The notes under the pieces were generated by a model. It made no database searches. It was not told where the DNA came from and worked only from the letters and a program-made list of their open reading frames with translations. Shown here piece after piece: positions 22,426 through 43,792 of a stretch of DNA of 64,000 bases. The position numbers and the translations under genes are program-made. The DNA comes from Candidatus Peribacteria bacterium (GTDB taxonomy: Bacteria > Patescibacteriota > Gracilibacteria > Peribacterales > Peribacteraceae): contig VGKY01000002.1 of NCBI GenBank assembly GCA_016866875.1, forward strand, positions 31,688 through 95,687. The letters run 5' to 3'. How positions within the stretch are numbered: position 1 is the stretch's first letter; every line of letters begins with the position of its first letter.

Positions 22426-22446
22426 TATTGTTATTTTATACTACTT

Positions 22447-23639: not shown

Positions 23640-23734
23640 GCGAATGCCGGAAGGATAGCGCCGAGAAGGATACCAACGAGTCCGAATATCGCGAGGATTT
23701 TCACGGGAGTGGATTTCTTCATGAGGGAAAAGGG

Positions 23735-25771: not shown

Positions 25772-26757
25772 TCGCTGGGGGGGGAGATAGCAGTGCGAGC
25801 GTGCTCATCGATCGCGGAGCGGATATCGCTCTCGGGTATGGGCAAGACCCCATCCTTCGCCTGAGCAGCGGGAACCAGTGTAGCACCACTTGGGAAGGGC
25901 CGGGCATCGGGGGGAATCTCTACGGGGGCAGCAGACCCAAATTGCGAGAGCTTTACAGAGATCTCTGCGCGCGCAACGGAACCCTCGGGCAGAGTGAGAG
26001 AAGGTATTTCCCACCGCACCTGCATCACCCGGAAATCTTTTGCAGAGATCCAGAGCTCACCCGTAGCCTGGAGCAAATGGATCTCCCTTCGAACTTTCTG
26101 CTCTTCAAACGGGTCACCCCGCTCCTCTGCCAAATCCCGGAGATACACAATGAGACGCTCCGGATCGAGTGCCACGCCGTAGTGGTAAGTCGGCTCACCA
26201 GAGAGACGCTCGACCCCTAACTCCCGCGTGACGCGGACAACGCTGGCTTGGGACTGCAAGAGTCGCGCGCTCGGTGCGACGGAGATTTCATCGCCACCAT
26301 CTTCCTTGGCAATCATCCACCACGCACCGGCAATTGACTGTATGACCGCAGGATCGAGGAGTCCGGCATCAGCGGGATCCGTCTGTAGGGCGCGCACGAA
26401 GAAGTAGAAGCGCTGAGCGGCGATGGAGACCGTATCGACGATGGCGTGGAGCGACTGCTCCGCACCCTCTGCATCACGATACCGCACAGTGGTGTCGATA
26501 GCGGCGCTCACGATTCTTCCGCCGTCATTGAGTGCACCCTCTATACGCATCACGCCGCCACCGTTACCAAATAGTCCGCCTCCGTACGCAAACGTGACAT
26601 CCGCCTGGTACGCAGCGGAAGTGAGCACCGCGCCTGCCGTAACAGCGTTCTGCAATACCTGCTCCGCGGGAAACGCCGGCACATCTGCCCTGCAAGCAAC
26701 GAGTGCGAGGGCGACGAGAGGGAACAGGGTTCTCCTGCGCGACATGGCCCCAAGCAT
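25768..26757 (-). CDS. lipoprotein, hypothetical
   Basis: Signal with lipobox LVAC. 4-nt overlap with the PKD gene, suggesting an operon. Confidence 0.55.
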   Translation of the reverse strand: MLGAMSRRRTLFPLVALALVACRADVPAFPAEQVLQNAVTAGAVLTSAAYQADVTFAYGGGLFGNGGGVMRIEGALNDGGRIVSAAIDTTVRYRDAEGAEQSLHAIVDTVSIAAQRFYFFVRALQTDPADAGLLDPAVIQSIAGAWWMIAKEDGGDEISVAPSARLLQSQASVVRVTRELGVERLSGEPTYHYGVALDPERLIVYLRDLAEERGDPFEEQKVRREIHLLQATGELWISAKDFRVMQVRWEIPSLTLPEGSVARAEISVKLSQFGSAAPVEIPPDARPFPSGATLVPAAQAKDGVLPIPESDIRSAIDEHARTAISPPSE

Positions 26758-26793
26758 ACTGCAGAACTCGCCCGACGCGAAGGCCTACCTCCT

Positions 26794-27648
26794 TCAGGAG
26801 GCATCCCGCGCCCGGAGATCAGAGGCTTCCTCGACAGTGAAGCGAATCGTGCGCCTTCGAGACGCCCGTACATCGGCGTGAAGTTCAAATATCCGTGAAG
26901 AACCGCGCGAAATCAGCACGGGAGGGTTCAGGCTGAGGCTGACCTTATCCCCTGTCATACGAGGAGCGATAGAAGAGACACGTTGAGCCCTGTTATCGTG
27001 CAGAGAGATATTCTGCAAGTCCGCATTGCGGGCCGATCCCTGGTTGGTGAAAACGACGTGCGTGACTTCTTGGTCCTCCGTACCGCTTGCCGTGAGGCGC
27101 AGGCGGGCAACGACACGATCTGCACCGTACGAGATACGTCGCAGAGCACTCAGAAGGTCGACACTGACGGACCCCACGCTGTAGGGAGCGGTGCGGACCT
27201 TCGTCTGCAGAGACGGAAGCACTGTTATGTTGATAAAAGCGCCCGGGGAGACGATCGGATCGCGATCAACGAGGGAAATCCGGTGCTCCGAAGCGACTTC
27301 TGCGGAAGAAGCGACGTCAGCCAGTATCGAGAGTTCTATCGCTTTACATGCAGGCACCGTGAGTGCCTGGAACCGCAAGGGGATCTCTCCCCGGCGATCC
27401 GGGACAGAAACGCGCGAGACGCGAACGCCGTCCATCTCCGCATAGACTGCTGCGATGTCTGTCGACAGACCGGGACCGGAACGCTTCAGGAGGATCTCCT
27501 CGATAGGAGCGTCCGCCGAACAATCGGCGCGCATGTGAAGAGCAAGTACCGGTACACGTTGGGCTCCGCGAGGAAGTGACCCAACAGCCAATTCCCGGGA
27601 AGTGACCGTCAGTGACGCCAGAGCAGAAAGCAGTAGGACAGGAAGCAC
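26794..27648 (-). CDS. secreted hypothetical protein
   Basis: Signal-like N-terminus MLPVLLLSALASLTVT. Same strand as, and close to, the two downstream genes. Confidence 0.5.
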   Translation of the reverse strand: MLPVLLLSALASLTVTSRELAVGSLPRGAQRVPVLALHMRADCSADAPIEEILLKRSGPGLSTDIAAVYAEMDGVRVSRVSVPDRRGEIPLRFQALTVPACKAIELSILADVASSAEVASEHRISLVDRDPIVSPGAFINITVLPSLQTKVRTAPYSVGSVSVDLLSALRRISYGADRVVARLRLTASGTEDQEVTHVVFTNQGSARNADLQNISLHDNRAQRVSSIAPRMTGDKVSLSLNPPVLISRGSSRIFELHADVRASRRRTIRFTVEEASDLRARDAS

Positions 27649-27703
27649 GGAGGGAGTGTAGCACGCTTACCGACAATGCGGATTTGAGGTATAGTAAACA
27701 GAT

Positions 27704-27907
27704 ATGTCCGGTCCAGAAATGCCTCACGGCCCAGAATGCATTCCTCAAGTATGTAATCCTGCAGAGGCAGCGACCCAGAGGATCGCGCAGCTGAATAGCA
27801 ACATCCTCGGGACTGCACTGGATCTTGCGCCTGCAGTGCTGGGCGTGGGATTGCTCGTGTACGGATTCCGTCAAATGTACAAGTCTACATTTCAGAAGAT
27901 CTCCTGA
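27704..27907 (+). CDS. small membrane protein (hypothetical)
   Basis: 67 aa with one C-terminal TM (ILGTALDLAPAVLGVGLLVYGF). No family recognised. Confidence 0.3.
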   Translation: MSGPEMPHGPECIPQVCNPAEAATQRIAQLNSNILGTALDLAPAVLGVGLLVYGFRQMYKSTFQKIS

Positions 27908-27931
27908 ACTTGGAGTAACGCTCACGGAGGA

Positions 27932-28855
27932 CTACCACTTTCCTCCTCCTCCCCCACCCCCAAACGAGCCTCCACCAAAGCCTCCAAATCCTCCGCCTCC
28001 TCCACCCATCCCGGAGCCGCCATACCAGATTCCCCTTCTGTGTCGTCGCACACCTCCGTTTCTGGAAACGAGATAGTCAAAGAGCAGGCCAAGACCCGCA
28101 AGCACGGGAATGCTCCACCACCAGACGAGCGATACGGCAAGAACAACACCGATAAGTCCTCCCACAACCCCCCCGAGCCACCAGGACTTGGTGCGCCCAA
28201 AGAGCGCGACGAGAAAATCGAATCCAACAAACAGGAGGAAGAAGAAAAATTGACCCAAGCCAGATGATCCACGGGATTCTGAGGCATAGCGATCGGCTGC
28301 ATACTCGCCGCCAATGTGCTTCATCAGCGACTCAATGCCGGTCTGCACCCCCTGCGCATACTTCCCCTCACGAAACGAAGGAGCAAAGTCCGTCTCCACG
28401 ATTCCTGCAGCAACGATGTCGGGAACGGCGCCCTCAAGACCATATCCTGTTGCGATAAACGACTGACGCTCTTCGTAGGCGATGAGGATGAGAATGCCAT
28501 TGTGATACTCCTTTGAACCAATGCCCCATTTGCGACCGATGGCAACTGCGACATCGGCGATAGGCTCGCCATCCAGGGTCGAAACAATGAGAATCGCAAT
28601 TTCATTGCTTGTCTGAGTGCGATACTCCCGCAGGGTCGATTCCAGGGACGCTTCCTCGTCTTCGGAAAGGACCGCCGCTGTATCTGTCACGTATCCATCA
28701 TTTGGCGGTACGGAATAGGCAAAAGCAACGGCAGGAAAGAGCAAAGAGCATAAGACGAGAACGAATAATCGTTTTTTGGTTTTTTGGTTTTTTCGTTCGC
28801 CGTACACCGCGCAGAGACGAGGAAATGAGCAAACGGGAAAACGCATAGCACGCAT
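27932..28855 (-). CDS. TPM-domain protein (YgcG-like) with Gly-rich tail
   Basis: GYVTDTAAVLSEDEEASLESTLREYRTQTSNEIAILIV...NGILILIAYEERQSFIATGYGLEG is a TPM fold signature. TM segments and a GGGGGGFGGFGGG tail follow. Confidence 0.8.
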   Translation of the reverse strand: MRAMRFPVCSFPRLCAVYGERKNQKTKKRLFVLVLCSLLFPAVAFAYSVPPNDGYVTDTAAVLSEDEEASLESTLREYRTQTSNEIAILIVSTLDGEPIADVAVAIGRKWGIGSKEYHNGILILIAYEERQSFIATGYGLEGAVPDIVAAGIVETDFAPSFREGKYAQGVQTGIESLMKHIGGEYAADRYASESRGSSGLGQFFFFLLFVGFDFLVALFGRTKSWWLGGVVGGLIGVVLAVSLVWWWSIPVLAGLGLLFDYLVSRNGGVRRHRRGIWYGGSGMGGGGGGFGGFGGGSFGGGGGGGKW

Positions 28856-28864
28856 AACGTCATA

Positions 28865-29422
28865 CTACTCAAAATCCACCGCAGGCGCGACATCGCTTCC
28901 CTGCTGCGCTTCGAAGAATGCTTCGGCGTCAAACCCGAACATGCCGGCAAGCACATTGCTCGGGAACCGCTTCACGCGGAGATTGTATCTGCGAACTTCC
29001 TCATTGTAATCGCGCCGCGCGACGGCAATACGGTTTTCGGTTCCTTCGAGCTGCGTCATGAGATCGCGGTACGCCTGTGTGGCCTGAAGCTGAGGGTAGT
29101 TCTCCACAGCCACGAGAAGGCGCGAGAGAGCAGACTCCACCTCACCTGCGGCCGCAATGCGATCGCTGCGCGTCGGTGCGGTCTGCCAACGACTCCTCGC
29201 CTCGGTGATCGCCATGAAAGTCTCCTGCTCAAAGGAAGCAGCTCCTTGAACGGTGCTCACCAAGTTCGGGATGAGATCAACCCTCCGTTGGTACTGCGTC
29301 TCCACCTGTGCCCACGATGCGGCAACCGACTCGCTCCCCGTGATGAGTCCGTTGTAACCAGACCAGAGCCAGAGTGCGAGAACTCCGACGATGCCGATGA
29401 GAATCCAATGGATGCGCTTCAT
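28865..29422 (-). CDS. LemA family protein
   Basis: N-terminal TM, then YNGLI..ESV...WAQVETQYQRRVDLIPNLV...TEAR...YPQL...L..LEGTENRIAVARRDYN. Forms the classical pairing with the downstream TPM gene. Confidence 0.85.
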   Translation of the reverse strand: MKRIHWILIGIVGVLALWLWSGYNGLITGSESVAASWAQVETQYQRRVDLIPNLVSTVQGAASFEQETFMAITEARSRWQTAPTRSDRIAAAGEVESALSRLLVAVENYPQLQATQAYRDLMTQLEGTENRIAVARRDYNEEVRRYNLRVKRFPSNVLAGMFGFDAEAFFEAQQGSDVAPAVDFE

Positions 29423-29474
29423 GCGTAGAGCATAGGGAAAAATTCTGCAAAAAAGAAGAGTGGTGATCGCGCGA

Positions 29475-30023
29475 TCATTGGACCTCTTTAGCCCTCTCGT
29501 AGACAGACGTTATCTTCGCGATCGCCAAGACCTTGCCCTTCATACGTTGCTCCAGTGCAGATCGCGTCGCCTCGTGCGAAAGGCCTATGGCATCATTCAC
29601 CGCGTAGAGCGAAAAGACGTAGTGATGAAGCCCGGATCCTGCTGGTGGACACGGCGGCTCGAAGCCCGTCGTTCCCGCACTCGTCGTGCCTTGCACCGCG
29701 GCCCCGGGAAGCGTGCTCTCATTGATCTCTACGACATCCACAGGGATATCCCAAACGACCCAGTGCACAAAGTGCCCGGACGGAGCATCGAGATCATCGA
29801 GGACGAGGGCAAGAGACTTCGTCCCAGGCGGAACGCCAGAGATCCGTAGCGCAGGGGCCATACCAAGACCATCGCAGGTGTACTGCGCCTGGAGCGCCTC
29901 ACCATCGGCGAAGGCGCTGGAAGATAGGCTAAATGGAAGTTGCTGCGCTACCTTTGCGGAGTTGCCGCACGCCGCGAGTATCAGTGTACTCAGGAGGATG
30001 ATGGAGGCTCTGAAACGGATCAC
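29475..30023 (-). CDS. YbhB/YbcL (PEBP, Raf-kinase-inhibitor-like) family lipoprotein
   Basis: GTG start chosen at 30023 ahead of the signal IILLSTLILAAC. YTCDGLGMAPALRISG, LDDLDAPSGHFVHWVVWDIP, PPCPPAGSGLHHYVFSLYA. The longer ORF to 30299 runs through a repeat element. Confidence 0.8.
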   Translation of the reverse strand: MIRFRASIILLSTLILAACGNSAKVAQQLPFSLSSSAFADGEALQAQYTCDGLGMAPALRISGVPPGTKSLALVLDDLDAPSGHFVHWVVWDIPVDVVEINESTLPGAAVQGTTSAGTTGFEPPCPPAGSGLHHYVFSLYAVNDAIGLSHEATRSALEQRMKGKVLAIAKITSVYERAKEVQ

Positions 30024-30324
30024 CGTACCATTGTACCTGAGAAGGCAAGGATTGATGATCGTACGTATGAGAATGAAATGTCTGCCCTGCCTAGCGGAAG
30101 GTGCTGGGTTGGGTGGAGTGCCGCGTGCGGCACGAGCAAGGGAAGAGACGCCTCGCTCTAGCTCAGATCCTGGGCGTTGAGTAGCATGAGCCTGATCGGG
30201 ACGTAGCTCTGCCTGCCGGTAGGTAGGTCGGTTGGGCTCGGCATCTCTCAAGATGCCGGCAAACATAAAGACGCACATGCGCTCTAGCTCCCGATGCATG
30301 CATTCCTATAGCATTCACCACAGT

Positions 30325-30401
30325 CGGGACGTAGCTCAGTTGGCTAGAGCGCACGGTTCGGGACCGTGAGGCCGGAGGTTCGAGTCCTCTCGTCCCGACC
30401 A
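30325..30401 (+). tRNA. tRNA-Pro (anticodon CGG), CCA encoded
   Basis: CGGGACG TA GCTC AGTTGGCTA GAGC G CACGG TT-CGG-GA CCGTG AGGCC GGAGG TTCGAGT CCTCT CGTCCCG A CCA. Confidence 0.9.
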
Positions 30402-30488
30402 CATTCCCACACATTGATTTGACTGGAGACCTTTTTCGCTTAGGATTGCCACAGATGCAGCGATCTCGCTCCATCATCAGCATTATCA

Positions 30489-30926
30489 TTATTCCGACGC
30501 TAGGCGCCCGGAGGTGATGTGCTGACTGACTGCTTCTCCCCGCGCCAAGGAAGGCGCGTTTTTTGTATTCACTACTCCCCTTCCCATGGACTCCACCGAC
30601 CGCACGCCGGATTTCGATGGCCTTGTACATGTACAGGGGCATCCCGTACGCCTGAGGCTTCGCCTCTCAAGCCACCACGCGGCCGCTTGCCAGCTCTTAT
30701 CCGAGGCTTTGAGGATCGTTTGGATGCGAGCGACCTTGCACTCGGCCTCTGCCTTTTTTATAGCCACAGAAAACACCGATTTCTCGGTCTGCCATGTGCG
30801 GAAGGTTTCGTAGCTGATTCCCTCCATGGCACAGGCATCTTTGAAGCTACAGCCTTTTTTGAGCCATTTGCAGAGAGCAGCCTGCATCTCAGGGCTGAAT
30901 TTCGAGTTTCTTCCCATCAGATACAT
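30489..30926 (-). CDS. phage terminase-small-subunit-like HTH protein
   Basis: GRNSKFSPEMQAALCKWLKKGCSFKDACAMEGISYETFRTWQ...AAAWWLERR resembles TerS-like HTH proteins (recalled pattern GRPSKxTPE ... W.AAAW.LERR). The last about 55 aa are GC-rich and probably not native. Confidence 0.35.
   Translation of the reverse strand: MYLMGRNSKFSPEMQAALCKWLKKGCSFKDACAMEGISYETFRTWQTEKSVFSVAIKKAEAECKVARIQTILKASDKSWQAAAWWLERRSLRRTGCPCTCTRPSKSGVRSVESMGRGVVNTKNAPSLARGEAVSQHITSGRLASE
30541..30564 (+). terminator. intrinsic terminator downstream of tRNA-Pro
   Basis: CGCGCC aaggaa GGCGCG followed by TTTTTT. Confidence 0.6.
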
Positions 30927-30961
30927 TTTACAGCATCTTCTGTGTACAACTTTGCATTAGA

Positions 30962-31711
30962 ATGCGCTCATGTGCGAAACATACCGACAATGTGACTATG
31001 AACTTCGACACAGCAATTTATGTCTTGAATGAACGTCTTCGGAAAGAGCAACCTGAGGAGATCAGCAGCTCGTGGATTTCCTCTCGGCTTCCTGCCGTCT
31101 ACCAATTCATCTGGCGCACTATTAGAACGCCACTCGGGGACATCAATTGGGATTGGGTCATTTCCCATCTGGAGTGGGAGCTGCAAAAGCTCTGGCATCC
31201 ACAGCGCTTCAGAAGGAAAGCAGAGTACACCGATGCTGTAGAGGTGCAGATCGCACTCGGAAACTACTACGACAAACGCTACGTGTTTTTCTCTGCACCA
31301 ACGGAAGTGGAGTGGGATATTCGGAGAAGAATCTGCGCCATCTTCGCTCGTCTTGCACAGCGTGGAAATAAAACGGCTGAGGAGGAATTCTTGGAACTCC
31401 TGCGCTTCATGGTGCAGAAGTGGATGGAGTACCGCCCGATGCTCTGGCGGTGGAAGGGATACCCTGAAGATTTGGATAAGGCTCTACGCCGTTGCATTCA
31501 CTGTTACCGCTACACGGGCAATTTCACTTCCTATCTGTATATTTCTCTCATCAAAGCAGGCAGAGGGCTGCCGAAATTCTACGTGTCATCGCTTGATAAG
31601 GTTCTATTCGATGACAGTAGAACGGAAGTGAGGCGACTGGATAGTGTTGTTCAAGACCCCGAAACAGGAGACATCAAGCTCTTTGAGAGAGCGGATTATG
31701 TAGCGGTGTAA
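30962..31711 (+). CDS. hypothetical protein, weak sigma-70 region-2-like segment
   Basis: FLELLRFMVQKWMEY...DLDKALRRCIHCYRYTGNFTSYLYISLIKA...SSLDKVLFDD is reminiscent of sigma region 2. Weak by-eye call. An alternative start at MNFDTAIY is possible. Confidence 0.25.
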   Translation: MRSCAKHTDNVTMNFDTAIYVLNERLRKEQPEEISSSWISSRLPAVYQFIWRTIRTPLGDINWDWVISHLEWELQKLWHPQRFRRKAEYTDAVEVQIALGNYYDKRYVFFSAPTEVEWDIRRRICAIFARLAQRGNKTAEEEFLELLRFMVQKWMEYRPMLWRWKGYPEDLDKALRRCIHCYRYTGNFTSYLYISLIKAGRGLPKFYVSSLDKVLFDDSRTEVRRLDSVVQDPETGDIKLFERADYVAV

Positions 31712-31719
31712 ATGAGATG

Positions 31720-34700
31720 CTATGCTCTCTGAATTCTCATTACCTCCTCAGGCTTTATCTGCATGGGAAGGAACTGTAGCAGTTGTGGGGTAAGTTCTCC
31801 TGTAGCCAGCGAGTGGCGCACAGCAGGCTCAATCTGCTGCCTATAAGGCTCCCTAAACGGCTCAGGCACCCTTGCAGCTACAGCTTCAAGTAAGGCGGTT
31901 TGCATGTGGGGGTGCATGCCATTCAAAAGTGCAGAAATGACGACACGCATTAGGTCATTCTTTTCCAAGAATTGCGTGTACTCGCCATCGGTCAGCAATC
32001 CCTTCTGAACTTCTGTTACAAACGGGTCAATTGAGCTTCCTGCACTCTGTAATCTTTCTCGTAGCAAACGCTCCTGCTCCACAAGGTCATTGAAGAATTG
32101 TTTCACAGTCTTCTCTCCATTAAGCGTACTGAGCAGAAGACCCGCAAACTGACGGTAGCCTTCCTCAGTCCAGCCATTCACAGGCATACATTTGAAATCA
32201 AAGTGTCCGATTTTATGTAGCTGCGGCTGCACCTTTACGTTTCCTCCATGCCTATCACAATCAAACCGTCCGCGTAGTTTGTTATTCAATTCAAAAGCCA
32301 AGATAGCCATTGCTTGTCTCTTCTTGGATGTTTTCTCTGCATCATTATTTTCAGGCAGTTCAATGAAATGTTGTCCCTGAATCTTGGACATTAAGAAGAA
32401 TTTTTCACCAGCAACGATGACATCAGCTGAGTCGAAATAAAACTGCTCGCCATCAACTGCAATGCTGGCTCCCCTGTATATTTCCCTTGCCGCGCCGTAC
32501 TGCTGCTTTGCAAGAGGACAATCTACTTCTAATCCCAAACGCTGGTTCGCTTGGTCAATAAGCTCACGAGTCGTCTGAACTATTGAATGGCCGCTATCCA
32601 ATTCTAAATTGTCAGACATGCGACGCATCGTTTCAAATCCTGCGCGTCCTCTGTTCTCAACGTCAGGACGCAGCAATGAAAGCATGTAGGAATTCCCATC
32701 ACTCATCTCAACTTCCACGACAACGTAGATTGAGCCTGAACCAACAACGTCCCCTATACGGCTGACTTTCGCAGCTTCTTGACTTCCCTGAACAGCATTA
32801 TATTCACGCTCAAGTTCAGAACGCGCACTTTCCACCCATTGTGTTACATCCCATCGTGCAGGTTCGCTTGCATGGAATTTAAGCCGCTTCAGGTCTTCAC
32901 GTATGTTCGTCGGAACCAATGGATGACTTTGTGCTGCCTGTCCAAATTTTGTTTCTGCTGGACCCATGTTTTCGAGGAAGTACGCAAGAGCTTCGCCAAG
33001 ACGCATATCGGATGAACCGCGTTTTTCTGCTGCTGCCATCATTGCACCTAAACAAAGATGCTTCTGATAGTGCGGCAAGGCATCAACATATCCTCTGAGG
33101 AAGAATCTGGCCTCCTCCTCATACAAGCTCCCACCTTTGAAGACTTTTGAAACGGTATAATCGAATGTTTCCTTATCCACCTGATTTACTACCTCCTCAG
33201 GGGAGACGAGCAATTCGCGCACAAGTACGGCTCGCGCCTCAATGGGGGAAGACCAGAAATTTTCATAGAAGTAACGCAGGAATTTGAGTGCGACCTGCTT
33301 CCTGTAAGCGAGAAGCATAGCCTTATCGCTCCCTTCTTCGTAATCTTCTTCCTTCAAGGTAAACCCACCCGACATTAGGTTGTATTTATCCACGAATTCC
33401 AAAGCCTCTTTTCCGCTATCCAGATAACGCTCACAGAAGTCATCGGATAGCGGAGTCGTAAGGAAATCCAGTGTCGCTTTGCGGTGGTCAGGCGACCTGC
33501 GAATGTTGTCTATCGTCGCGTCGGTGAACACTCCGTACAAAGACGACTGAGTGAATGTTTCTTCTGTGACTTCGTAAGCTCTCTTCTGTAGTTCGCAACT
33601 CAAATGATTCTGAGTTTCTAATTTCTTCGCCAAAGAACCTAGTATTTCTGCATGGTCAACGCGGTTCATAGTGGCTCTCACTCTGTCCGCAATGGCAATG
33701 ATGGCAGTTGCATATTCAGCGTCGCCTTTATCCATTCCATAAAGTTTCTTCGCGCTATCAGTCCAAGCATCAATCAGGCGAGTTCTTAGCTTCGGGTCTT
33801 GAATTCTCGCACCACCAAGAAGTTCCTCGCACATCTGCATACATTGCCTGTTTGCATCTGCTGAACCATTATTCAATTCAACAGACCTATCAACCAAAAT
33901 TCTTAGGATTTCATCTGATGTTTCAGGGAAAAGTAATTCAGCCTTAGAGAGGAGTTTCCATTGACGTACAGCACTGGGAAGGTCGGCTGTCTTTGCATTG
34001 TTTGTAGCGTAATTCTTTACTCTCTGTTTTAGCTTTTCTCGTAGGTGTCTTTGAAAATGGGAGTTTGCTACAAGGTCAGCCGTCATACGCTCAACGAAAT
34101 CAGCTGCCTGAGCCAAGGTAGGGATTTTGGTTTCGATAAGTTGTATCGCTTCACAATACAAGCATGACCTTGCTAGGGTCATCTCTTCGGAAAAACCGTT
34201 CACTTCCTGAATCAGTGACAGGAGCTTATTCCATGTGAGGGGTTTGAATTCATATCCATGACCTGTCTTATCGAGCTGCGGCTTTATCAAATTCACATAT
34301 TTTTCTCCAAGTTTGGCATCGTAGAGATCTACGTTTGCAACAAAGTGCGATTGAGGAGTTGATACATAGGAGAATTTCTCTTTCAGAAGCCATTTATCGC
34401 AAAAGGAAATTTTCTCCTCATCACTGAGAGCTTTACACTTCTCATCCAAGAGATAATCAAAGTAGGGATTAGTTCTAATTTCTTTTTTCCTTCCGCCGCT
34501 TCTAGCCGCGAGTCCCTCATCAATACCTGCTAGTGGCATTGTTGAAACGAGCGACTGAAGAATGATTTGCTCTCCACTCTTGGAGGTCAGGAAGTACCTG
34601 AATAACTCAGTGCCTTTCTCACCAAGACTTTCTAACTTTGAAATCAACATTCTCGCTGCGCGTCTGTCATCTTGTAGTGCAAACCAGTTCAGCTCTAGGA

Positions 34701-36747
34701 ATAGCTGGAAATTCTTTTCGCATACATCAAGACAAAGAAGTCCAAGTTTTTGACCTGACTTTGCATTAGAAAGACCCGCCCATGATTCGGAAATCTTTGA
34801 CAAGCGTCTTGCAGCTTCCTCATCTTGTTCTGCTAAAAGAAAATCATGTTCCGCCCAACCACTTAGGTATTGCTCGAATATCGCCTGTATCTTCTCTTCA
34901 TTCTCTATGTTATCACCAATATCAACATCCTTTACAGTGCCGTCTTCATTGAAAGTGAGGGCGTCTACAGTGGTGCCACCATCCCGTGGCCCCTGAGAAA
35001 TTGTGGCAATACTTCCCACTATGTCTCCCAAGGCTTGTGTCCGCATCCTAGCTGTTAAAGTCAGCGCCAAGTCTAAATGATTACAAAGAGCACGCATCAT
35101 AAAGGGGTCTCTTACCAGACCTAAGTACGCAGCTGCCTTTGCGACTTCAGGATGTTCTATAGCAATACTTCTGAGTTCTTCCCAAGCAACATGAACGCCA
35201 CCATCACGCCTTCGTAGGCGACGAATTTTCTCTGTGTCTGGAAAGTCAAATTGCGGCCAATCTATCTTATTCAAGAAATGCAAACCATCTGAACTCTCTA
35301 AGAAAGGCTCTCCTTTTTGTTCTTCCGAACCTTCCAGTAATTCGTTTACAGCTATTGCTGCCTCAATAACTGTTTCCTCATCCCCCTCATACTCCTCTAT
35401 TGATTGAACGAAAGTCTTCACTGCCTTACCTAGTCGCCTGAGCCTTCCTAAGGGCGGTGTACCAAGTGCACTGTAAAGTGTTCCAGCAAGTGCGCTATAT
35501 AGCGTGGACATCTTTGTGATGCTATCCCGCTCGCCAAACTGTAGTACGTGGTTTGCGAAGCTATGAACTGCCTTTCTGTCTTCTGGCGTCTGTACTTCAG
35601 GGCCAAGCTTTCTGATTTCCGCTGCCAAATCACCTATACGTACTTCCCATGTCGTCTTATCCATGTCATCCAGAACGCTCCTTAGAATTTCAATCTTCTC
35701 TATACACGTAGCTCCTGCATATTCAGGGTGTCTGCTCAGATCAGCCTGAACATACGATGTATGGGATGCGCCTTTCACAACTCTTATAATTTCATCATTA
35801 TCTGAATACTTTCCGACCTCTGGGACATCGGGTGCGAGAGTACCTTTTTCCTTCCGAAGATACGCAAGAGTGTCACTGACGATTGAATGGATGTTGTTAG
35901 TTGAGGGATGAACGTCCATGTACTCAAACCATGGGCTAGTGCCTTTGGATTGTTCCTTCATGGCATTGAATAAGCCTTCTCTACCATCTTCGCCAAGTAC
36001 TCTTTCTGGATTAAGCCCTAGCTGCTTGCCCTTCTCACACATCAGAATGAGAGGGAAGGAATACGCAAAGCCTTCCTCTATCTTGGAATTCGGAATGTTC
36101 CCATACACCTGTCTCATCTTCAGATGTGTCATCTCGTGACTCAGTATCGCTACGAAATCATTTGGGGTGCTTACTAAGGGTTGGCCTTTCTTTGCACTGA
36201 ATAGACATTCTGTGAAAACTATAATCGGAGGATTACTATGACGCACAAACCAAGCGTTAGGTTTAGGATCTTTCGATAACAGAAAACGCACGGGCTGTTT
36301 CTTGAAGTCATGTTGTCTAAATGCATGGTGGGGAAGATGTTCGCCGCCTTTTACTTCTGCATATAAATGTTCTCCTAATCCTTGGGCGATTTCCTGAAAC
36401 CTACGTCCTTCCATAGAGTCTGGACTGACGAGCCGCCATGCCTCTGCAAGTTGTGGGGGTATTTCACCTCGTTCCAATTGTTCTTTCATAATCGCTTTTT
36501 CATCTTTCTCTGTCTCTGACGTTTCTTCGTCAGCTTCTTCATCTTCAACAGCAGAAATTTTCTGGTTGTAGTCTCTCCTCATTCGTTGAGTTCGTTTTCT
36601 CACTCCCTTCGCAGCCATTGTCCTATCCTCCATTCCCTCACGTACTTCACCTTGTACGGCTCGCTGCGAGCGTTCCACTTCTAGATCAGGAACGCTAAAT
36701 TCCCTCGCTTCGCCTAATTCAAGCCGCTCCTTTGGGTCATTGACCAT
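31720..36747 (-). CDS. giant (1675 aa) protein: zincin HExxH metallopeptidase-like module plus C-terminal ABC1/UbiB-type kinase-like module
   Basis: No signal peptide. PNAWF...IIVFTECLF...FVAILSHEMTHL (HExxH at 36124-36138). C-terminus: LENMGPAETKFGQAAQSHPLVP, VGSGSIYVVVEV, DCDRHGGNVKV, IGHFDFK. Confidence 0.7.
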   Translation of the reverse strand: MVNDPKERLELGEAREFSVPDLEVERSQRAVQGEVREGMEDRTMAAKGVRKRTQRMRRDYNQKISAVEDEEADEETSETEKDEKAIMKEQLERGEIPPQLAEAWRLVSPDSMEGRRFQEIAQGLGEHLYAEVKGGEHLPHHAFRQHDFKKQPVRFLLSKDPKPNAWFVRHSNPPIIVFTECLFSAKKGQPLVSTPNDFVAILSHEMTHLKMRQVYGNIPNSKIEEGFAYSFPLILMCEKGKQLGLNPERVLGEDGREGLFNAMKEQSKGTSPWFEYMDVHPSTNNIHSIVSDTLAYLRKEKGTLAPDVPEVGKYSDNDEIIRVVKGASHTSYVQADLSRHPEYAGATCIEKIEILRSVLDDMDKTTWEVRIGDLAAEIRKLGPEVQTPEDRKAVHSFANHVLQFGERDSITKMSTLYSALAGTLYSALGTPPLGRLRRLGKAVKTFVQSIEEYEGDEETVIEAAIAVNELLEGSEEQKGEPFLESSDGLHFLNKIDWPQFDFPDTEKIRRLRRRDGGVHVAWEELRSIAIEHPEVAKAAAYLGLVRDPFMMRALCNHLDLALTLTARMRTQALGDIVGSIATISQGPRDGGTTVDALTFNEDGTVKDVDIGDNIENEEKIQAIFEQYLSGWAEHDFLLAEQDEEAARRLSKISESWAGLSNAKSGQKLGLLCLDVCEKNFQLFLELNWFALQDDRRAARMLISKLESLGEKGTELFRYFLTSKSGEQIILQSLVSTMPLAGIDEGLAARSGGRKKEIRTNPYFDYLLDEKCKALSDEEKISFCDKWLLKEKFSYVSTPQSHFVANVDLYDAKLGEKYVNLIKPQLDKTGHGYEFKPLTWNKLLSLIQEVNGFSEEMTLARSCLYCEAIQLIETKIPTLAQAADFVERMTADLVANSHFQRHLREKLKQRVKNYATNNAKTADLPSAVRQWKLLSKAELLFPETSDEILRILVDRSVELNNGSADANRQCMQMCEELLGGARIQDPKLRTRLIDAWTDSAKKLYGMDKGDAEYATAIIAIADRVRATMNRVDHAEILGSLAKKLETQNHLSCELQKRAYEVTEETFTQSSLYGVFTDATIDNIRRSPDHRKATLDFLTTPLSDDFCERYLDSGKEALEFVDKYNLMSGGFTLKEEDYEEGSDKAMLLAYRKQVALKFLRYFYENFWSSPIEARAVLVRELLVSPEEVVNQVDKETFDYTVSKVFKGGSLYEEEARFFLRGYVDALPHYQKHLCLGAMMAAAEKRGSSDMRLGEALAYFLENMGPAETKFGQAAQSHPLVPTNIREDLKRLKFHASEPARWDVTQWVESARSELEREYNAVQGSQEAAKVSRIGDVVGSGSIYVVVEVEMSDGNSYMLSLLRPDVENRGRAGFETMRRMSDNLELDSGHSIVQTTRELIDQANQRLGLEVDCPLAKQQYGAAREIYRGASIAVDGEQFYFDSADVIVAGEKFFLMSKIQGQHFIELPENNDAEKTSKKRQAMAILAFELNNKLRGRFDCDRHGGNVKVQPQLHKIGHFDFKCMPVNGWTEEGYRQFAGLLLSTLNGEKTVKQFFNDLVEQERLLRERLQSAGSSIDPFVTEVQKGLLTDGEYTQFLEKNDLMRVVISALLNGMHPHMQTALLEAVAARVPEPFREPYRQQIEPAVRHSLATGELTPQLLQFLPMQIKPEEVMRIQRA

Positions 36748-36913
36748 ATATACATTTTACAATATAAATATATAATAGTCCACATTATTCCGAGGGAACT
36801 AAACATCAAGAATTCCGTTTCCAGCAAATTTTGACGCGACTTTTTGTGTCACAGAATGTCTATTATGTTCAACACCTCAAGACAAAGAACACAGAAAATC
36901 GGTACTCAGGTCA

Positions 36914-37834
36914 TCAGTCTACTCGAATCGGCTGCAACATGACCGCGCTGTTCTTTAAGCGCTCTAGATTATGAAAATAGCGCTGCGTCGTATTGGGATT
37001 TGAATGACGGGCAAAGTCAGCGGCAGCTATGAGGCTCGCTCCTCCGTTGATCAGGTGAGTGATACTGCTATGTCGTAGGCTGTGCACAGAGATGTTTGGC
37101 CTGTTGATACCTATTCTTTTCAATCTCAGTCGTACCATGTGCTGAATCGTCCTTCTAGCGATTCTATCTTTTGCAGTGTGATTTGTTCCGATGAATAACG
37201 GGTCTGATGTTTTCAAACTACTTCGTGTTTTTAGGTATGACTGAATTACAGCATACACATCGTCTCTCATGCGCGTATCAATGTTCTTCCCGCCCTTACC
37301 TCTAATTCTCAGCACCTTAAGTCCATTCACTTCCGAAAGATCACCTATATTTGCACGAGCTACTTCACAAAGTCGAATGCCGTTAATAAGCAGCAATGCA
37401 CAAATTGCTTTATCTCTCTTTCCAAGGTTCGTTGAGGCATCAATTGAGGAGAGAAATTGGTTGCACTCAGCGAGGGTCAAAATACCTCTCACAGTTTCAT
37501 TACTGACCTTTGGTAGCTTTATTCCTGCACTTGGGTTTGTAGGGATGACTCCCTGCTCATACAGAAAGGTAAATAGCCTTCTAAGTACCGTAAGTTTCTT
37601 CGCAATCGTAGCAGCCTTTAATCCTCGTACCGTCAGGCTTTCCTTGTAGTTCAAAAGATCATGCAAAGTCACTTCATCTGCTCGTTTTCGTATTTTTCTA
37701 TAGAACAAACTGATTTCTTGGGCATACGTCTGCTTAGAGTTTTCACAGCTTTGGTTTGAAATAAATGATTTTGCGTATTCTGCTAATGGGTCACGAAGAG
37801 CTATTGCCTGTGGTGTTTGGGGAATCAATTGCAT
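36914..37834 (-). CDS. tyrosine recombinase / phage-type integrase
   Basis: N-terminal SAM-like domain. Catalytic region: LLINGIRLCEV (Arg), HSLRHSSITHLI (HxxR), ARHSNPNTTQRYFH (His, Tyr). Confidence 0.85.
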   Translation of the reverse strand: MQLIPQTPQAIALRDPLAEYAKSFISNQSCENSKQTYAQEISLFYRKIRKRADEVTLHDLLNYKESLTVRGLKAATIAKKLTVLRRLFTFLYEQGVIPTNPSAGIKLPKVSNETVRGILTLAECNQFLSSIDASTNLGKRDKAICALLLINGIRLCEVARANIGDLSEVNGLKVLRIRGKGGKNIDTRMRDDVYAVIQSYLKTRSSLKTSDPLFIGTNHTAKDRIARRTIQHMVRLRLKRIGINRPNISVHSLRHSSITHLINGGASLIAAADFARHSNPNTTQRYFHNLERLKNSAVMLQPIRVD

Positions 37835-37940
37835 GTCTGTATCCTAATAAATATATTTCTATTAGACAACTAATTATCAGTTGACTAACAGACAAACAAT
37901 TTCTTCCCAAAGTACACTCCCAAACACTATAATTTCTTTT

Positions 37941-38156
37941 ATGAAGAAACGTCCTAAAGCAATGGGAAGGATTGATGTAGCTTCCTATCTCAACATCACC
38001 CCTCAATACGTAGATGTTCTTGCTTCAAAAGGAAAACTCGAATTCCAAGAAACTACATCAGGAAAAATCTTCTTCGAAGATGACGTAAAGAAATATGAGC
38101 TAGAAAGAATAAAGAAAAGAGCAGGAGATAAGAGATTCAAGACAAAGAACTCTTAA
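37941..38156 (+). CDS. excisionase/MerR-like helix-turn-helix protein
   Basis: IDVASYLNITPQYVDVLASKGKLEF...IFFEDDVKKY is typical of small HTH_17/excisionase proteins. Divergent from the integrase. Confidence 0.5.
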   Translation: MKKRPKAMGRIDVASYLNITPQYVDVLASKGKLEFQETTSGKIFFEDDVKKYELERIKKRAGDKRFKTKNS

Positions 38157-38235
38157 AAGAAGAATTAAACGTACTCTACCTACTCCTATAGGCTCTTCTA
38201 CCTCTATTACTATAGTTCGAGGTACAGCAGGGCTA

Positions 38236-38604
38236 TTATGACAGGACTGCGTAACTGGCTTCATTCTGCCATGCGTGTTTTCTGCCGTACTCGAATGACG
38301 GGTCAAAGATGCGAATGACCTCAGCGTACCGTTTGCCAAGATGACCGTGTTCCCTGTGGTGATTCCTGATGCGTTCGACCAACAGACGCTCGATGAAGCC
38401 GATGGGCTGATGTTCCTCGTACAGTTGCCGCAGATAGCCGTCGTACACGTTGTCCTCGTAGGTAGTACGCAGCACACCGAGGATGCCGTGTTTCTTCGCG
38501 TTCCAGCGAACGACGGATTTCCCGCGCTCTGTCTTCACGCCGCCGCGCTTGGCATTGCTTTTGTTCGCGGCGATTTTGGCGGGAGAGGTGACGGCCATAA
38601 ACAA
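38236..38604 (-). CDS. hypothetical protein
   Basis: 122-aa ORF with GC like the host. A truncated paralog lies at 39352..39567. Confidence 0.4.
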   Translation of the reverse strand: MFMAVTSPAKIAANKSNAKRGGVKTERGKSVVRWNAKKHGILGVLRTTYEDNVYDGYLRQLYEEHQPIGFIERLLVERIRNHHREHGHLGKRYAEVIRIFDPSFEYGRKHAWQNEASYAVLS

Positions 38605-38737
38605 CTATAAGGATACAGCAATATAGTAGTTTCCGTGAATCCACTGCCTCATTGCCCATAGAGGGCTCAAAAATAGGATTTGACACTCTGAAATAAAGAG
38701 TGTATTATGTACATATTATCTTTTACCACAGTCTACT

Positions 38738-39274
38738 ATGGAAGCAAAGAAAGACCGCATACAACAGGCACGGGAAACGTATGCAGACAATCCTCTCACG
38801 GCGGCGGAGCTCGCAGTCTTTGAGGCTTTTAGTTCTTTGCCCGAAGATCAGTGGCAGCCCGAAGAAATTCCTACATACTATGCAGGAAAAAAAAAGGGAA
38901 CATTCAAGGTTTTGAATACTGAACTCGATCTAGGCGGCGGGAAAGTCGTTACCTTCAAGAATGTTGTAGTGGACGGATACGGTACGTGGTGGAGGGCTGG
39001 CAACGGTGGAACAATCGAAGTAAAAAAGGAAAATGACACCTTGAAGATTCAACAGGACGATGGAATCTATTTTTCATTCAATGGCGTGCCGCTCGACTAC
39101 CATAGTGGCACGGAAAACTCCGCAACTCTCACGCAGAAGATTTTCGATGTCGTCGAAGGCGTGAAGGCCGTCGGTGAGAAAATGAAGCAGGACATTGAGG
39201 ATCAGCGCAACGGTGAAGTAGACGCACGCAGAAGGGAGATGGCAGAAAAGCTCGAAGGACTTGCTGATTTTTGA
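38738..39274 (+). CDS. hypothetical protein
   Basis: 178-aa ORF followed by a clean intrinsic terminator. No family recognised. Confidence 0.45.
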   Translation: MEAKKDRIQQARETYADNPLTAAELAVFEAFSSLPEDQWQPEEIPTYYAGKKKGTFKVLNTELDLGGGKVVTFKNVVVDGYGTWWRAGNGGTIEVKKENDTLKIQQDDGIYFSFNGVPLDYHSGTENSATLTQKIFDVVEGVKAVGEKMKQDIEDQRNGEVDARRREMAEKLEGLADF

Positions 39275-39300
39275 GCGCCATACCAGCTTCGAGTTTCAGG

Positions 39301-39327
39301 AACCCCGCTCATGCGGGGTTTCTTTGA
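39301..39327 (+). terminator. intrinsic terminator
   Basis: AACCCCGC tcat GCGGGGTT followed by TCTTTG. Confidence 0.7.
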
Positions 39328-39351
39328 ATCATGTCTACGTGCGAGAAAGGG

Positions 39352-39567
39352 TCAGCTTATAATAAGACTGGGTATTTTTTGGCTGATGGATGCCAACTCT
39401 TTTTCAGTCCGAGGATGATAGTTCGGGATGAACATGCGAATGACCTCCACGTACCTTTTGCCGAGATTACCGTGTTCCCTGTGGTAGGATTGTAGGCGTT
39501 CGAGTTGGGCTGCTACTGCCCGACCATCGTCAGTTTTCTCCCGTTTCGCCCACTCCTCAGTCGACTC
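39352..39567 (-). pseudogene. truncated paralog of 38236..38604 (C-terminal fragment, no start codon)
   Basis: Translates ...ERLQSYHREHGNLGKRYVEVIRMFIPNY, versus ERIRNHHREHGHLGKRYAEVIRIFDPSF in the intact copy. An in-frame stop lies immediately upstream. Confidence 0.55.
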
Positions 39568-40287
39568 TCAGAGAAAACGGCAGCAAAATGTATGCTGGAA
39601 ATGTTTCCATAAAATATTTCCGCGTTAAGACAATGTGTTATTATAAAACATTTCTGTTCGCTTTGTGACCAACCATACCGCGAAAATCGAGAAAATGGCG
39701 AAAGAAGAGAACGCTCTCTTTGTGCAAATTTTAGGCCATTTCGGCAATTTTGCTGTAATTTGAACCGAGCGAATACAAGTTTAGTTCACCTGCATCTAGA
39801 CAATACATTGAGTATCAGTACACTGCCGCACTCCCCTTCGGGAGGCTACTATGAAGATCGTGGAGCTCATGCTTCGCAAAGCTTCACTGGAGCCCGTGGC
39901 GACCCACGTGCTGCTCATCACCCTCCTCTCTGTCGTCTTGGTGGTGAGCCTCCCTGCGCATCCGTAAGGGGGTCTAGTGAACAACACGGCAGAAATCTCC
40001 GCCTCAAGCGGAGATACACACACCTTCCCCCGTCTCGAAAGAGACCACCGGACAGTGGGGGTGTTGAACCGTGTGTGGTTTTCCGGAGCCCATCCAATGG
40101 CGAATCGGAAGAGAACGTGTATGCCGCATCATGGTATAGACGAAAAGCAATGCTTGCAGCGGGAGCAGACCGAGCCTAGTCTTACATCGTGATTGGCGCT
40201 TACATCCTCTTCTGCTCCCCCTCCTCCTCCTGCTCTTCGAGCCTGTGGGTGGGTTGCGCGTAGCAGAAAAGGATCCGCGCATACTCC

Positions 40288-40311
40288 ACCCGCACGGAGC
40301 GGGTTCTTTTT
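40288..40311 (+). terminator. intrinsic terminator ending an ORF-poor, hairpin-rich stretch
   Basis: ACCCGC acgga GCGGGT followed by TCTTTTT. Confidence 0.5.
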
Positions 40312-40567
40312 ATTCGCCATACTTCCTCCCCACCCATGCAACCACACTCTCCAAAACAATACCATCCCCAAAGCATCCCAAGGCTGCAGAAATGGCTCAA
40401 GGGCTTCGATCGCTACAGCGAACCGAGTGTCGACGCGCAACGAGCGATCGGCGGATTTCGCGAGGAACTTGTGAGAGCGCTCAGCACCAACCCTCAAGAT
40501 CACGCGGTCATCTCTCACATGCTCAGCGAACTTCTGCGGGAAGAGCAGCGCATCATGGGTACGACAA

Positions 40568-41083
40568 CTACCTCCGCTTCGTCGGCTTGAGCGTTGCGGT
40601 TGCTACGATGTGTGTAGACGCCTCGGTGTTGCCGTCGTCCTTCTCGAGGGTGACGCGCACATCGAGGTACCTGCGTAGATCCTCTGAAGACTCGAGCTTG
40701 AACCCATGGCGCGCGTCGCCGAAGTGATTGACGAGGTGACCTGCAGAGACGCCTTGCTGAGTCTCGAGATCACGGATCCAGACTTCATAGAACGTTCCCT
40801 CCTTCGCCGGCTCCACATTGACTTGGCCCGTGACGATCGTCGCACCGTCTTCAAACACATGACTGGTGACAACCCCGTTGGCGGGAGTCCACTGATTTCC
40901 TGCGACAGCGCCATAGGCAAACCACTTCTCTTCACCATGCCCCGGGACCTCCACTCTGCCGTTGACGGGCATGATCTGCTCGAGGGACTGACCGCCGATG
41001 GGAGGGTCTTCGATGGTCGTGGTCTCAGGGCCACAGGCGACAAGGGAGAGTCCGAGGACGAAAACGATAGGCAATGTCTTCAT
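40568..41083 (-). CDS. lipoprotein, hypothetical
   Basis: MKTLPIVFVLGLSLVAC signal with a lipobox. All-beta-looking sequence with a YEVWIRD motif. Confidence 0.55.
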   Translation of the reverse strand: MKTLPIVFVLGLSLVACGPETTTIEDPPIGGQSLEQIMPVNGRVEVPGHGEEKWFAYGAVAGNQWTPANGVVTSHVFEDGATIVTGQVNVEPAKEGTFYEVWIRDLETQQGVSAGHLVNHFGDARHGFKLESSEDLRRYLDVRVTLEKDDGNTEASTHIVATATLKPTKRR

Positions 41084-41143
41084 AGGGGTCTAAGGGTAGA
41101 CAGATTTTCCCTGGCAGAAAAGGGGGGAACCCAAGAAAGACGA

Positions 41144-43147: not shown

Positions 43148-43200
43148 CGAGCGCAGTATGCAGGAGGATACTGAGAAGCAGAAGAGGCCGTGGGATCTTT

Positions 43201-43623: not shown

Positions 43624-43792
43624 GCTCGTACGATCAATCCCTGCCGTCCACCTCAGCGGTTTCGATGTGTGCGGTGTCGGGCAAGAGGAGCATCGCAAGG
43701 TCCGCGAGGCGTTCACTTCCTGCGATGCTCCAGATCAACAACAAGCCTTTCGCTCGGCACGGCAGAGGGAATGTGATAAGGTTGTGGTGCTT

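Follow-up and report, generated by a model that had tools for sequence, protein, structure and literature searches.

The window analysed here is a stretch of 64,000 nucleotides from contig VGKY01000002.1 (positions 31,688 to 95,687; assembly GCA_016866875.1) of a Candidatus Peribacteria bacterium, a lake bacterium of the candidate phyla radiation (CPR), and all coordinates refer to this window unless another contig is named. Its positions 30402-39526 are almost certainly a site-specific integrative element, which sits at the extreme 3' end of a tRNA-Pro(CGG) gene (30325-30401, plus strand; detected by ARAGORN). Read from the tRNA gene inwards, the element encodes a homolog of the small terminase subunit (TerS) of phages, a protein of 237 amino acids (aa) without known relatives in the family databases, a giant protein of 1675 aa, a tyrosine integrase, a divergently transcribed Xis-like helix-turn-helix (HTH) protein and two further ORFans, designated p120 and p178. 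The giant gene makes up 55% of the island and is for this reason considered its main cargo. An earlier note on this DNA, which was made from the sequence alone, had regarded it as the sole cargo, which does not strictly apply since two further ORFans and a gene fragment are also held by the element.

The boundaries of the element became apparent from an unoccupied version of the locus, which was located by looking up contigs that encode exactly the RskA_C-domain protein of the flank. In contig L039 (Logan ERR14822415_129409), genes for Wzy_C and RskA_C proteins are directly followed by those for PEBP, LemA and TPM. When compared with the window by blastn, the reverse complement of this contig matched with its positions 1-8959 to 21443-30401 (99.91% identity) and with its positions 8952-13261 to 39519-43828 (99.95% identity). 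The two segments overlap by 8 nt, i.e. CCCGACCA, and the element therefore corresponds to 30402-39526 and comprises 9,125 bp including one repeat copy, with a GC content of 0.460. The octamer represents the cores of both attachment (att) sites, attL at 30394-30401 and attR at 39519-39526. In tRNA-Pro(CGG) it covers the final 4 nt of the acceptor stem together with the discriminator A and the encoded CCA; the gene of this tRNA is intact and has the same sequence whether or not the element is present. The boundaries are precise: the element is enclosed by an 8-bp direct repeat, the tRNA gene is regenerated intact, and presence or absence of the element is polymorphic between near-identical strains. 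This bears out the integrative island at tRNA-Pro suggested by the earlier note, but not its extent: the AT-rich core indeed ends near 38.2 kb, whereas the mobile unit continues to 39526 and thus exceeds the interval given previously, which ended at 38160, by 1.37 kb.

From the sequence alone the att core would have been unconvincing. A search for repeats of at least 11 nt between the tRNA region and 36.7-41.5 kb yielded nothing meaningful, and CCCGACCA was only one among many shared 8-mers; the 8-bp core is accepted because the empty site reveals it. The right end of the element (39498-39526) additionally contains the T-arm-like sequence GTTCGAGT at 39498-39505, ahead of the attR core. As this remnant lies inside the right end, the inferred attP would partly mimic the 3' end of the tRNA. 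Two points weigh against the satellite reading discussed below, namely the shortness of the 8-bp repeat and the fact that the empty site in L039 may represent the ancestral state instead of evidence for excision. A scan of metagenome contigs using the flanking PEBP protein retrieved two loci, neither of which was informative on the empty site.

The composition of the element is foreign to the host. Its GC content of 0.460 compares with 0.547-0.576 in 147 other 9.1-kb segments, and its tetranucleotide distance to the rest of the window amounts to 0.0316, while the other segments reach 0.0142 at most. At a resolution of 500 bp, GC ranges from 0.38 to 0.49 between ~31.5 and 38.0 kb and remains at or below 0.48 up to ~40 kb, whereas the flanks display values of 0.55-0.62. 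These profiles, computed as proposed in the earlier note, agree with its observation that the island is richer in AT than its surroundings. Within the element, GC is mosaic: terS (0.55) and p120 (0.56) resemble the host, in contrast to the AT-rich int (0.43), xis (0.36) and giant gene (0.457), and an intermediate value (0.50) is found for the 237-aa open reading frame (ORF) that separates terS from the giant gene. The mosaic suggests that the int-xis-giant module is foreign to an older backbone and was acquired from a donor of lower GC, for instance a Peribacteraceae bacterium of ~40% GC such as that of contig L011 described below.

The occupied locus has been assembled from many freshwater metagenomes (more than 10 samples), with 99.95-100% identity. 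Four independent Logan contigs of the left flank (L032-L035) all end at 30369, i.e. within the tRNA-Pro gene and 32 nt before the att core, and the samples concerned also gave island contigs. Such ends are compatible with a branch of the assembly graph at the att site and with co-existing occupied and empty alleles, although they are not proof thereof. A variant of the population was found in contigs L003/L029/L047 (positions 1-1871; JGI 3300020197, contig Ga0194128_10001037). It carries a p120-like gene (91% identical), a novel ORF of 407 aa and the 5' part of a TerS-like gene (90% identical), which is fused in frame to the sequence coding for integrase residues 123-306. The fusion occurs at an 8-nt microhomology, GAGTGCAA, and the junction corresponds to positions 37468 and 30736-30765 of the window. 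Contigs from at least three other assemblies end exactly at 37468 or 30765. Variant and contig ends together suggest that this lake population harbours either a second, related element or a tandem array that has suffered a deletion. Among the viral contigs of IMG/VR, no relatives of the variant's 407-aa ORF were found; L011 also contains a 407-aa ORF, but the two show no similarity and the idea that they are one protein was dismissed.

The recombinase of the element is a XerC/D-like tyrosine integrase of 306 aa (36914-37834, minus strand). Searches with profile hidden Markov models (HMMs) from Pfam, NCBIfam and PHROGs returned Phage_integrase (E-value (E) 1.1e-25; profile positions 4-169 of 172), TIGR02225 XerD (E 4.8e-41) and phrog_1 (E 1.3e-42), substantiating the tyrosine recombinase named by the earlier note. 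The catalytic set R-K-HxxR-H-Y can be read in the motifs GIRLCE, GKGGK, HSLRH and RHSNPNTTQRY, and judged by these features the integrase is intact and full-length. Its gene shares the strand of the giant gene, which begins 166 nt further downstream, and is 6.5 kb away from the tRNA gene. On the other side, separated by an AT-rich spacer of 106 nt, lies the divergently oriented xis-like gene (37941-38156, plus strand), which codes for an HTH protein of 71 aa, or of 91 aa when translation starts at the TTG at 37881. The divergent HTH protein is thus present as previously noted, but the matches that would make it an excisionase are weak (phrog_4691 excisionase, E 3.8e-4; HTH_17, E 0.07-0.11; TIGR01764, E 0.08). 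An Xis-like homolog (E 4e-13) directly adjoins a homolog of the giant gene in contig L012. A promoter-like site was detected in the xis/int region at 37904-37933; the numbers of promoters and terminators predicted in the island do not exceed the expectation from shuffled sequence.

Next to attL, the element encodes the TerS homolog (30489-30926, minus strand; 145 aa). The protein matched phrog_4102 (E 5.8e-22) and, above the gathering score of 27 bits, Sf6_terminase (28.4 bits), and 44 relatives were retrieved from IMG/VR viral contigs. In eight of ten IMG/VR contigs tested, the gene for the large terminase subunit (TerL; Terminase_6N/6C or Terminase_3) is the very next large ORF after that of the TerS relative. 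By profile and by viral gene order, the 145-aa protein is a genuine member of the phage small-terminase family, which strengthens the earlier description of a TerS-like protein. The possibility that the gene is cut by the att boundary was ruled out, as the ORF is located wholly within the element. The 3' third of the terS ORF contains a 28-nt palindrome, GATGGCCTTGTACATGTACAGGGGCATC (30616-30643), and close to attL a strong terminator-like hairpin (30541-30558, plus strand). Hairpin and palindrome could serve as recombination or packaging sites, or the real TerS could be shorter than 145 aa.

The giant gene (31720-36747, minus strand) encodes a soluble protein of 1675 aa, in which an M48-type zincin, an alpha-helical solenoid and a domain of UbiB-like kinase fold follow each other. 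No transmembrane segment is apparent, the maximum Kyte-Doolittle value over 19 residues being 1.16. The zincin core comprises residues ~130-300 (35848-36360, minus strand) and contains the motifs HEMTH at residues 204-208 (nt 36124-36138), NSKxEE at 220-225 and DVHP at 278-281. Residues 142-216 match Peptidase_M48 of Pfam with 23 bits and hence above the gathering score of 20.3 bits. A profile built from 55 homologs (20-46% identity) matches BepA (6ait) with E 7e-11, covering the NAwf strand, the HExxH motif, the Glu of ExxAD type and the His of the HP motif. Residues H204, E205, H208, N220, K222, E224, E225, D278 and H280 are each conserved in at least 90% of these homologs. Judged from profiles and conservation, the N-terminal domain is a true M48 zincin, which bears out the zincin module named by the earlier note, and peptidase activity is predicted. 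It shares with soluble M48 proteases of the BepA type (6ait, 6sar) the HExxH motif, the downstream Glu in ExxA(D/Y), the His of HP, which caps zinc in BepA, and the N-terminal 'NAwf' strand motif. In contrast to BepA, it lacks a signal peptide, a TPR domain and the ~40-residue segment between HExxH and Glu, and it is fused to a solenoid-kinase portion of 1,400 residues.

The following ~900 residues, in which the earlier note recognised no motif, indeed match no known domain and form an alpha-helical solenoid in AlphaFold2 models (residues ~300-1229; 33061-35847, minus strand). Models were calculated from alignments of 42 sequences for residues 60-1000 (predicted local distance difference test score, pLDDT, 87.9) and residues 978-1675 (pLDDT 90.1; predicted template modelling score, pTM, 0.88) and are nearly all-helical between the two enzyme domains. 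Foldseek searches with the model of residues 60-1000 yielded only generic solenoids of HEAT/ARM repeats with TM-scores of 0.2 or less.

The C-terminal domain (residues 1230-1675; 31723-33060, minus strand) adopts the UbiB/ABC1 fold. Residues 1229-1521 matched TIGR01982 UbiB with E 5.6e-11, and the 12 best Foldseek hits in the PDB for residues 978-1675 are all members of the UbiB family, including MSMEG_1954, COQ8A/ADCK3 and Rv3197 (top E ~1e-7). These results support the ABC1/UbiB-like C-terminus recognised earlier by eye, even though the score for Pfam ABC1 (PF03109), 18 bits, remains below the gathering score of 22.9 bits; homolog P0002 passes this threshold with 28.2 bits. Because the TIGR01982 score of 41.7 bits is far below the equivalog cut-off of 487.55 bits, the domain is no UbiB orthologue but belongs to a distant clade. 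Recognisable motifs are KFGQ (1267-1270), GSGS (1336-1339), E1407, DCDRHGGN (1496-1503) and HFDF (1515-1518). Among the 55 homologs, K1267 is found in 53 and Q1270 in all, E1407, D1498 and D1517 are invariant, G1336 and S1339 are invariant or nearly so, and N/Q is kept at position 1503. The domain thus resembles UbiB/ABC1 kinases (COQ8A, 4ped/5i35; Rv3197, 5yjz; MSMEG_1954, 7cyr) in its fold, KxGQ motif, Gly/Ala-rich loop, αC Glu, D-x-H-x-x-N loop and DFG-like Asp. It differs from them by the helical solenoid that precedes it and by its β3 lysine, which is replaced by Ser or Ala throughout the family. In the pairwise alignment with Rv3197, AVKIQYP is opposite to MLSLLRP and position 1357 pairs with the β3 lysine; this position is Ser here and Ala or Ser in 41 of the 55 homologs and is followed by an invariant Arg1360. 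The catalytic set of UbiB/ABC1 proteins is consequently incomplete at this residue, which argues against an active kinase. Since the lysine is replaced family-wide, the chemistry with ATP may be atypical or absent. The domain is a distinct, distant clade of the UbiB fold, and its chemistry with nucleotides may be non-canonical. When the model of residues 978-1675 was compared with BFVD, the best matches were ABC1 proteins of ~760-840 aa from Klosneuvirus-like giant viruses. These matches (Edafosvirus, E 2.5e-14; Hyperionvirus) span ~800 columns and are better than those to any solved cellular UbiB structure.

When 1.84 billion cluster representatives (clusters at 50% identity) were searched exhaustively by phmmer with residues 60-1259 as query, 278 proteins were retrieved at E <= 1e-3, of which 150 also reached E <= 1e-10; the majority measured 1,450-1,750 aa. 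Narrower searches gave one match with the C-terminal region and six with the 55-sequence alignment as query. The HExxH motif and the C-terminal domain were both present in 118 of 154 retrieved sequences. Family members are labelled only as hypothetical or unnamed proteins, as 'AarF/UbiB family' or as 'M48 family metalloprotease'. The earlier note knew of no described family with such a protease-kinase fusion; we likewise found no published description, but the fusion is no singular case, with full-length homologs in at least 278 clusters. Our literature searches, which were few and can only be quoted as an absence of hits, provided no account of an M48-UbiB fusion or of mobile elements or phage satellites in CPR bacteria. 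Full-length homologs are encoded in metagenome-assembled genomes (MAGs) of Peregrinibacteria/Peribacteria, Patescibacteria, Bdellovibrionota, Bacteriovoracaceae and Melainabacteria (Caenarcanales, class Vampirovibriophyceae). Further named members are from a 'Pseudomonadota' MAG and a 'Methanobacteriota' MAG, the latter evidently being a misbinned Peribacteraceae contig (L017). No relatives of the giant protein were found in IMG/VR.

The giant gene is linked to a recombinase in a second Peribacteraceae locus, represented by contigs L011 and L017, which hold one and the same element. Here, a homolog of 45% identity is located directly downstream of a gene for a large serine recombinase and points with its 3' end towards that of tRNA-Ser(CGA); terS is absent. 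A 10-nt repeat, CATGGCGGAG, is present at positions 8060-8069 and 15395-15404 of L017, at the 3' end of tRNA-Ser(CGA) and upstream of the recombinase gene. The two copies would bracket a ~7.3-kb unit consisting of only the recombinase gene and the giant-gene homolog, which is unproven (E 0.23 in a small search). Elsewhere, the neighbourhood is ordinary and chromosomal, with PurH, FAD oxidoreductase and NUDIX, PPDK and PfkB, GPAT, PhnA and GSCFA, or a type IV pilus operon next to the homolog. The last case refers to P0009 (38% identity; L096 5474-14624), which is placed directly upstream, on the same strand, of genes for a response regulator, a PilB-type ATPase (T2SSE), PilC (T2SSF) and pilin-like proteins, while a prepilin peptidase gene is found further upstream. 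In L014 (1424-6272), the nearest homolog, whose C-terminal half is 61% identical, is split into ORFs of 725 and 902 aa that overlap by 38 nt, either as a frameshift or pseudogene or through a sequencing error, and lies between genes for a PEP-utilising enzyme and PfkB. Two relatives have a divergent architecture. In P0007 (2677 aa; L013 2564-10597), a SidE phosphodiesterase domain (SidE_PDE, E 4e-34) and ankyrin repeats are joined to a C-terminal part that is homologous to residues 978-1623; by this domain composition, the protein looks like an effector aimed at eukaryotes. P0047 (5715 aa; ENA metagenome) is more than three times longer than the protein studied here and contains HExxH twice and, at the C-terminus, the same UbiB-like domain.

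The gene content of the element was compared with that of known mobile elements. Islander-type tDNA islands (PMC4383910) share with it the insertion into a tRNA 3' end, the regenerated tRNA, the distal direct repeat, the internal integrase gene, the foreign composition and an empty site in a relative. The element differs from them by an identity block of only 8 bp, which covers the acceptor end and the encoded CCA only, by an integrase gene that is 6.5 kb away from the tRNA gene instead of adjacent to it, and by its CPR host. In every feature that was tested the element is a tyrosine-integrase tDNA island. Scans of the island ORFs with Pfam, NCBIfam and PHROGs detected no TerL, portal, capsid, tail, lysis, primase, helicase, rep or relaxase/conjugation family, in accordance with the earlier statement that capsid and tail genes are lacking. 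Phage-inducible chromosomal islands (PICIs), including the staphylococcal SaPIs, are comparable in this respect, as are the PICI-like tycheposons of Prochlorococcus, small tRNA-associated elements that carry a lone terS or major capsid protein gene and move in capsids of helper phages (bioRxiv 10.1101/2020.12.28.424599). Like these, the element is small (~10 kb) and tRNA-associated, resides in a streamlined genome, contains int, an xis-like gene, a lone terS and accessory cargo, and is devoid of capsid, tail, lysis and TerL genes; its putative packaging-hijack gene, terS, is known by homology only. Unlike these, it contains no primase, helicase, rep module or repressor that we could identify, and more than half of it is a single 5-kb gene. 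In layout it is therefore plausibly PICI- or tycheposon-like, which does not yet make it a member of either family. The PICMIs of Vibrionaceae are similar as minimalist, satellite-sized islands with few genes, among them an integrase and an AlpA/Xis-like HTH gene (PMC10803314). They integrate next to fis, have an int-alpA-prim core, need their primase and have no terS (PMC10803314). Membership in this group was rejected, as the element targets tRNA-Pro, has terS and has no recognisable primase.

We propose that the integrase, aided by the divergent Xis-like protein, would excise and integrate the element, and that the latter would travel between cells as PICIs or PICI-like tycheposons do, namely as a phage satellite whose TerS steers the terminase of a helper phage onto element DNA. 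Satellite-like spread is the most economical reading because the only transfer-related gene is a terS of a phage family, while no TerL, capsid, replication or conjugation genes were recognised. We consider such a lifestyle plausible and advance it tentatively. Of the PICI-like interpretation offered in the earlier note, the genuine phage TerS has held up, but several results weigh against it: viral TerS proteins reach no more than 43% identity, no circular attP junction was present among the contigs carrying the TerS gene, and no replication module, repressor or helper phage could be identified. A terS from a phage family whose members adjoin TerL might also have been left behind by a prophage that decayed through internal deletion of its structural and lysis genes, the giant gene being a former moron and att sites, int, xis and terS being what remained. 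Such a remnant may still excise, yet it would spread neither alone nor as a satellite. The GC mosaic of the element, the duplicated gene fragment at 39424-39485 and the variant in which the TerS'::Int fusion disrupts int are in line with this view. However, every gene that remains is an intact ORF, the gene order is compact, and no catalytic residue of the integrase is missing. The 99.95-100% identity in more than 10 samples, together with the presence polymorphism, points to recent mobility, and L011/L017 provides a second small element of recombinase and giant gene at a tRNA that does without phage genes. Overall, a prophage remnant appears rather unlikely.

The L011/L017 element, which lacks terS, is at the same time an argument for a non-phage integrative islet, in which the TerS-like protein would be an HTH regulator or a recombination-directionality factor, and which would be transferred by natural transformation or vesicles and then inserted by the integrase, similar to cargo-carrying elements of the tycheposon kind. 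No other phage-related gene is present in the element, the TerS region scores as HTH_Tnp_1 as well (24.6 bits), and most of the viral alignments are limited to residues 1-95. In addition, CPR bacteria are thought to import DNA via type IV pili and ComEC (PMC8080830). Nonetheless, some viral TerS relatives, which have TerS-like sizes, align over residues 5-135 and 7-145, and the match to phrog_4102 (E 6e-22 when rounded) is far stronger than that to the transposase HTH, so that we regard this explanation as improbable. Satellite-like spread is retained in our combined explanation, towards which we lean: an integrative element at tRNA-Pro that spreads in satellite fashion and carries an M48-solenoid-UbiB protein used between organisms.

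As to the cargo, we propose an accessory, horizontally traded machine with two enzymatic heads: the solenoid would bind a target, which the M48 and UbiB heads would cleave and phosphorylate, or process using ATP. It would act in conflict or exploitation between organisms, directed against prey, host or phage, instead of in housekeeping. This reading is favoured because of the conserved active sites, the dispensability of the gene at strain level, the repeated linkage to recombinases, the pattern of lineages and the effector-like P0007. A role in conflict or as effector is nevertheless put forward only as a possibility, since a number of observations speak against it. The N-terminus is acidic and has no signal-like segment, the hydropathy profile agreeing with what the earlier note had stated; no link of the giant gene to a secretion system was found; most homologs are located in ordinary chromosomal neighbourhoods; and the lineage pattern is based on about a dozen named sequences. 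Moreover, none of seven island proteins matched a defence model of PADLOC-DB 2.0 at E <= 0.1. This last result also argues against an anti-phage defence system of the abortive-infection type, in which sensing of a phage component would fall to the solenoid, and the shutdown of cell or phage to the protease and kinase heads. PICIs and tycheposons often carry defence genes (PMC10803314; bioRxiv 10.1101/2020.12.28.424599), the giant gene is found on mobile elements at least twice, and its distribution over distant phyla is patchy. Yet none of the homolog neighbourhoods inspected resembles a defence island, and the very stable architecture and strong conservation would be unusual for fast-evolving defence sensors. 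We judge defence to be quite improbable.

The preference of most homologs for housekeeping contexts, one of them directly upstream of a type IV pilus operon, would be better accounted for by a cytoplasmic enzyme of quality control or lipid handling, the island copy being a transferred paralog. In organisms living off other cells, such an enzyme might extract and cleave membrane proteins or scavenged lipid-linked molecules. M48 proteases (Ste24, HtpX, BepA, Oma1) and UbiB proteins (COQ8, Rv3197) act mostly on membrane-associated substrates. The closest solved relatives of the giant protein are BepA and Rv3197/COQ8A, and both catalytic centres are conserved, with the exception of the β3 lysine. 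On the other hand, no membrane anchor or amphipathic signal was detected, the empty site demonstrates that the gene is dispensable at strain level, and the linkage to recombinases is repeated. This alternative is therefore deemed unlikely, and an accessory two-headed enzyme remains our preferred view. A bolder version thereof, which we regard as doubtful, would be that the element is the first recognisable one of phage-satellite type in a CPR bacterium and that its cargo belongs to a hitherto overlooked class of 'giant-gene cassettes'. These would code for M48-solenoid-UbiB proteins of ~1,600 aa and be carried into tRNA genes by different recombinases, a tyrosine recombinase here and a large serine recombinase in L011/L017. 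The protein would then be a weapon or harvesting machine of bacteria with a predatory or episymbiotic life (Peregrinibacteria, Patescibacteria, Bdellovibrionota and Melainabacteria of the Vampirovibrio class), directed against the cells on which these live and employing ATP-dependent chemistry without the canonical kinase lysine.

What is new at this locus is a well-delimited mobile element of a CPR bacterium and an unstudied, widespread family of giant enzymes, whereas elements and enzymes of these kinds are known as such. The locus offers a precisely bounded and naturally polymorphic CPR example with exact att sites, by which questions of excision, packaging and helper phages become testable in existing lake metagenomes and viromes. 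It also draws attention to a sizeable uncharacterised family with fixed protease-solenoid-kinase architecture, conserved active sites and horizontal movement, whose named members are mostly from predatory or epibiotic lineages. If the link to these lineages is true, the family would be a candidate for a tool, and for a molecular marker, of cell-on-cell parasitism and also a new biochemical variant of the UbiB fold that lacks the β3 lysine.

The remaining ORFs of the element are ORFans. The first one (30998-31711, plus strand) is convergent with the giant gene and encodes 237 aa, or 249 aa when initiated at the upstream ATG at 30962. It matched no family in Pfam, NCBIfam, PHROGs, PADLOC or the PDB sequences, so that its weak resemblance to sigma region 2, which the earlier note had seen, finds no support there; two weak relatives in IMG/VR share 29-30% identity over ~85 aa. 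The other two are located beyond the xis-like gene. Thus, p120 (38236-38598, minus strand; 120 aa, or 122 aa from the TTG at 38604; GC 0.56) has no family match in Pfam, NCBIfam, PHROGs, PADLOC or the PDB sequences and no relative in IMG/VR, while a copy of 91% identity is present at positions 1-181 of the related element fragment L003. A duplicate of the p120 3' end (38299-38360) with 85% identity was detected by repeat search at 39424-39485 and is probably a remnant of this gene. For p178 (38738-39274, plus strand; 178 aa), Pfam, NCBIfam, PHROGs and the PDB sequences gave no significant match and IMG/VR no relative. The best promoter-like site of the whole island, at 38680-38708, is positioned ahead of p178.

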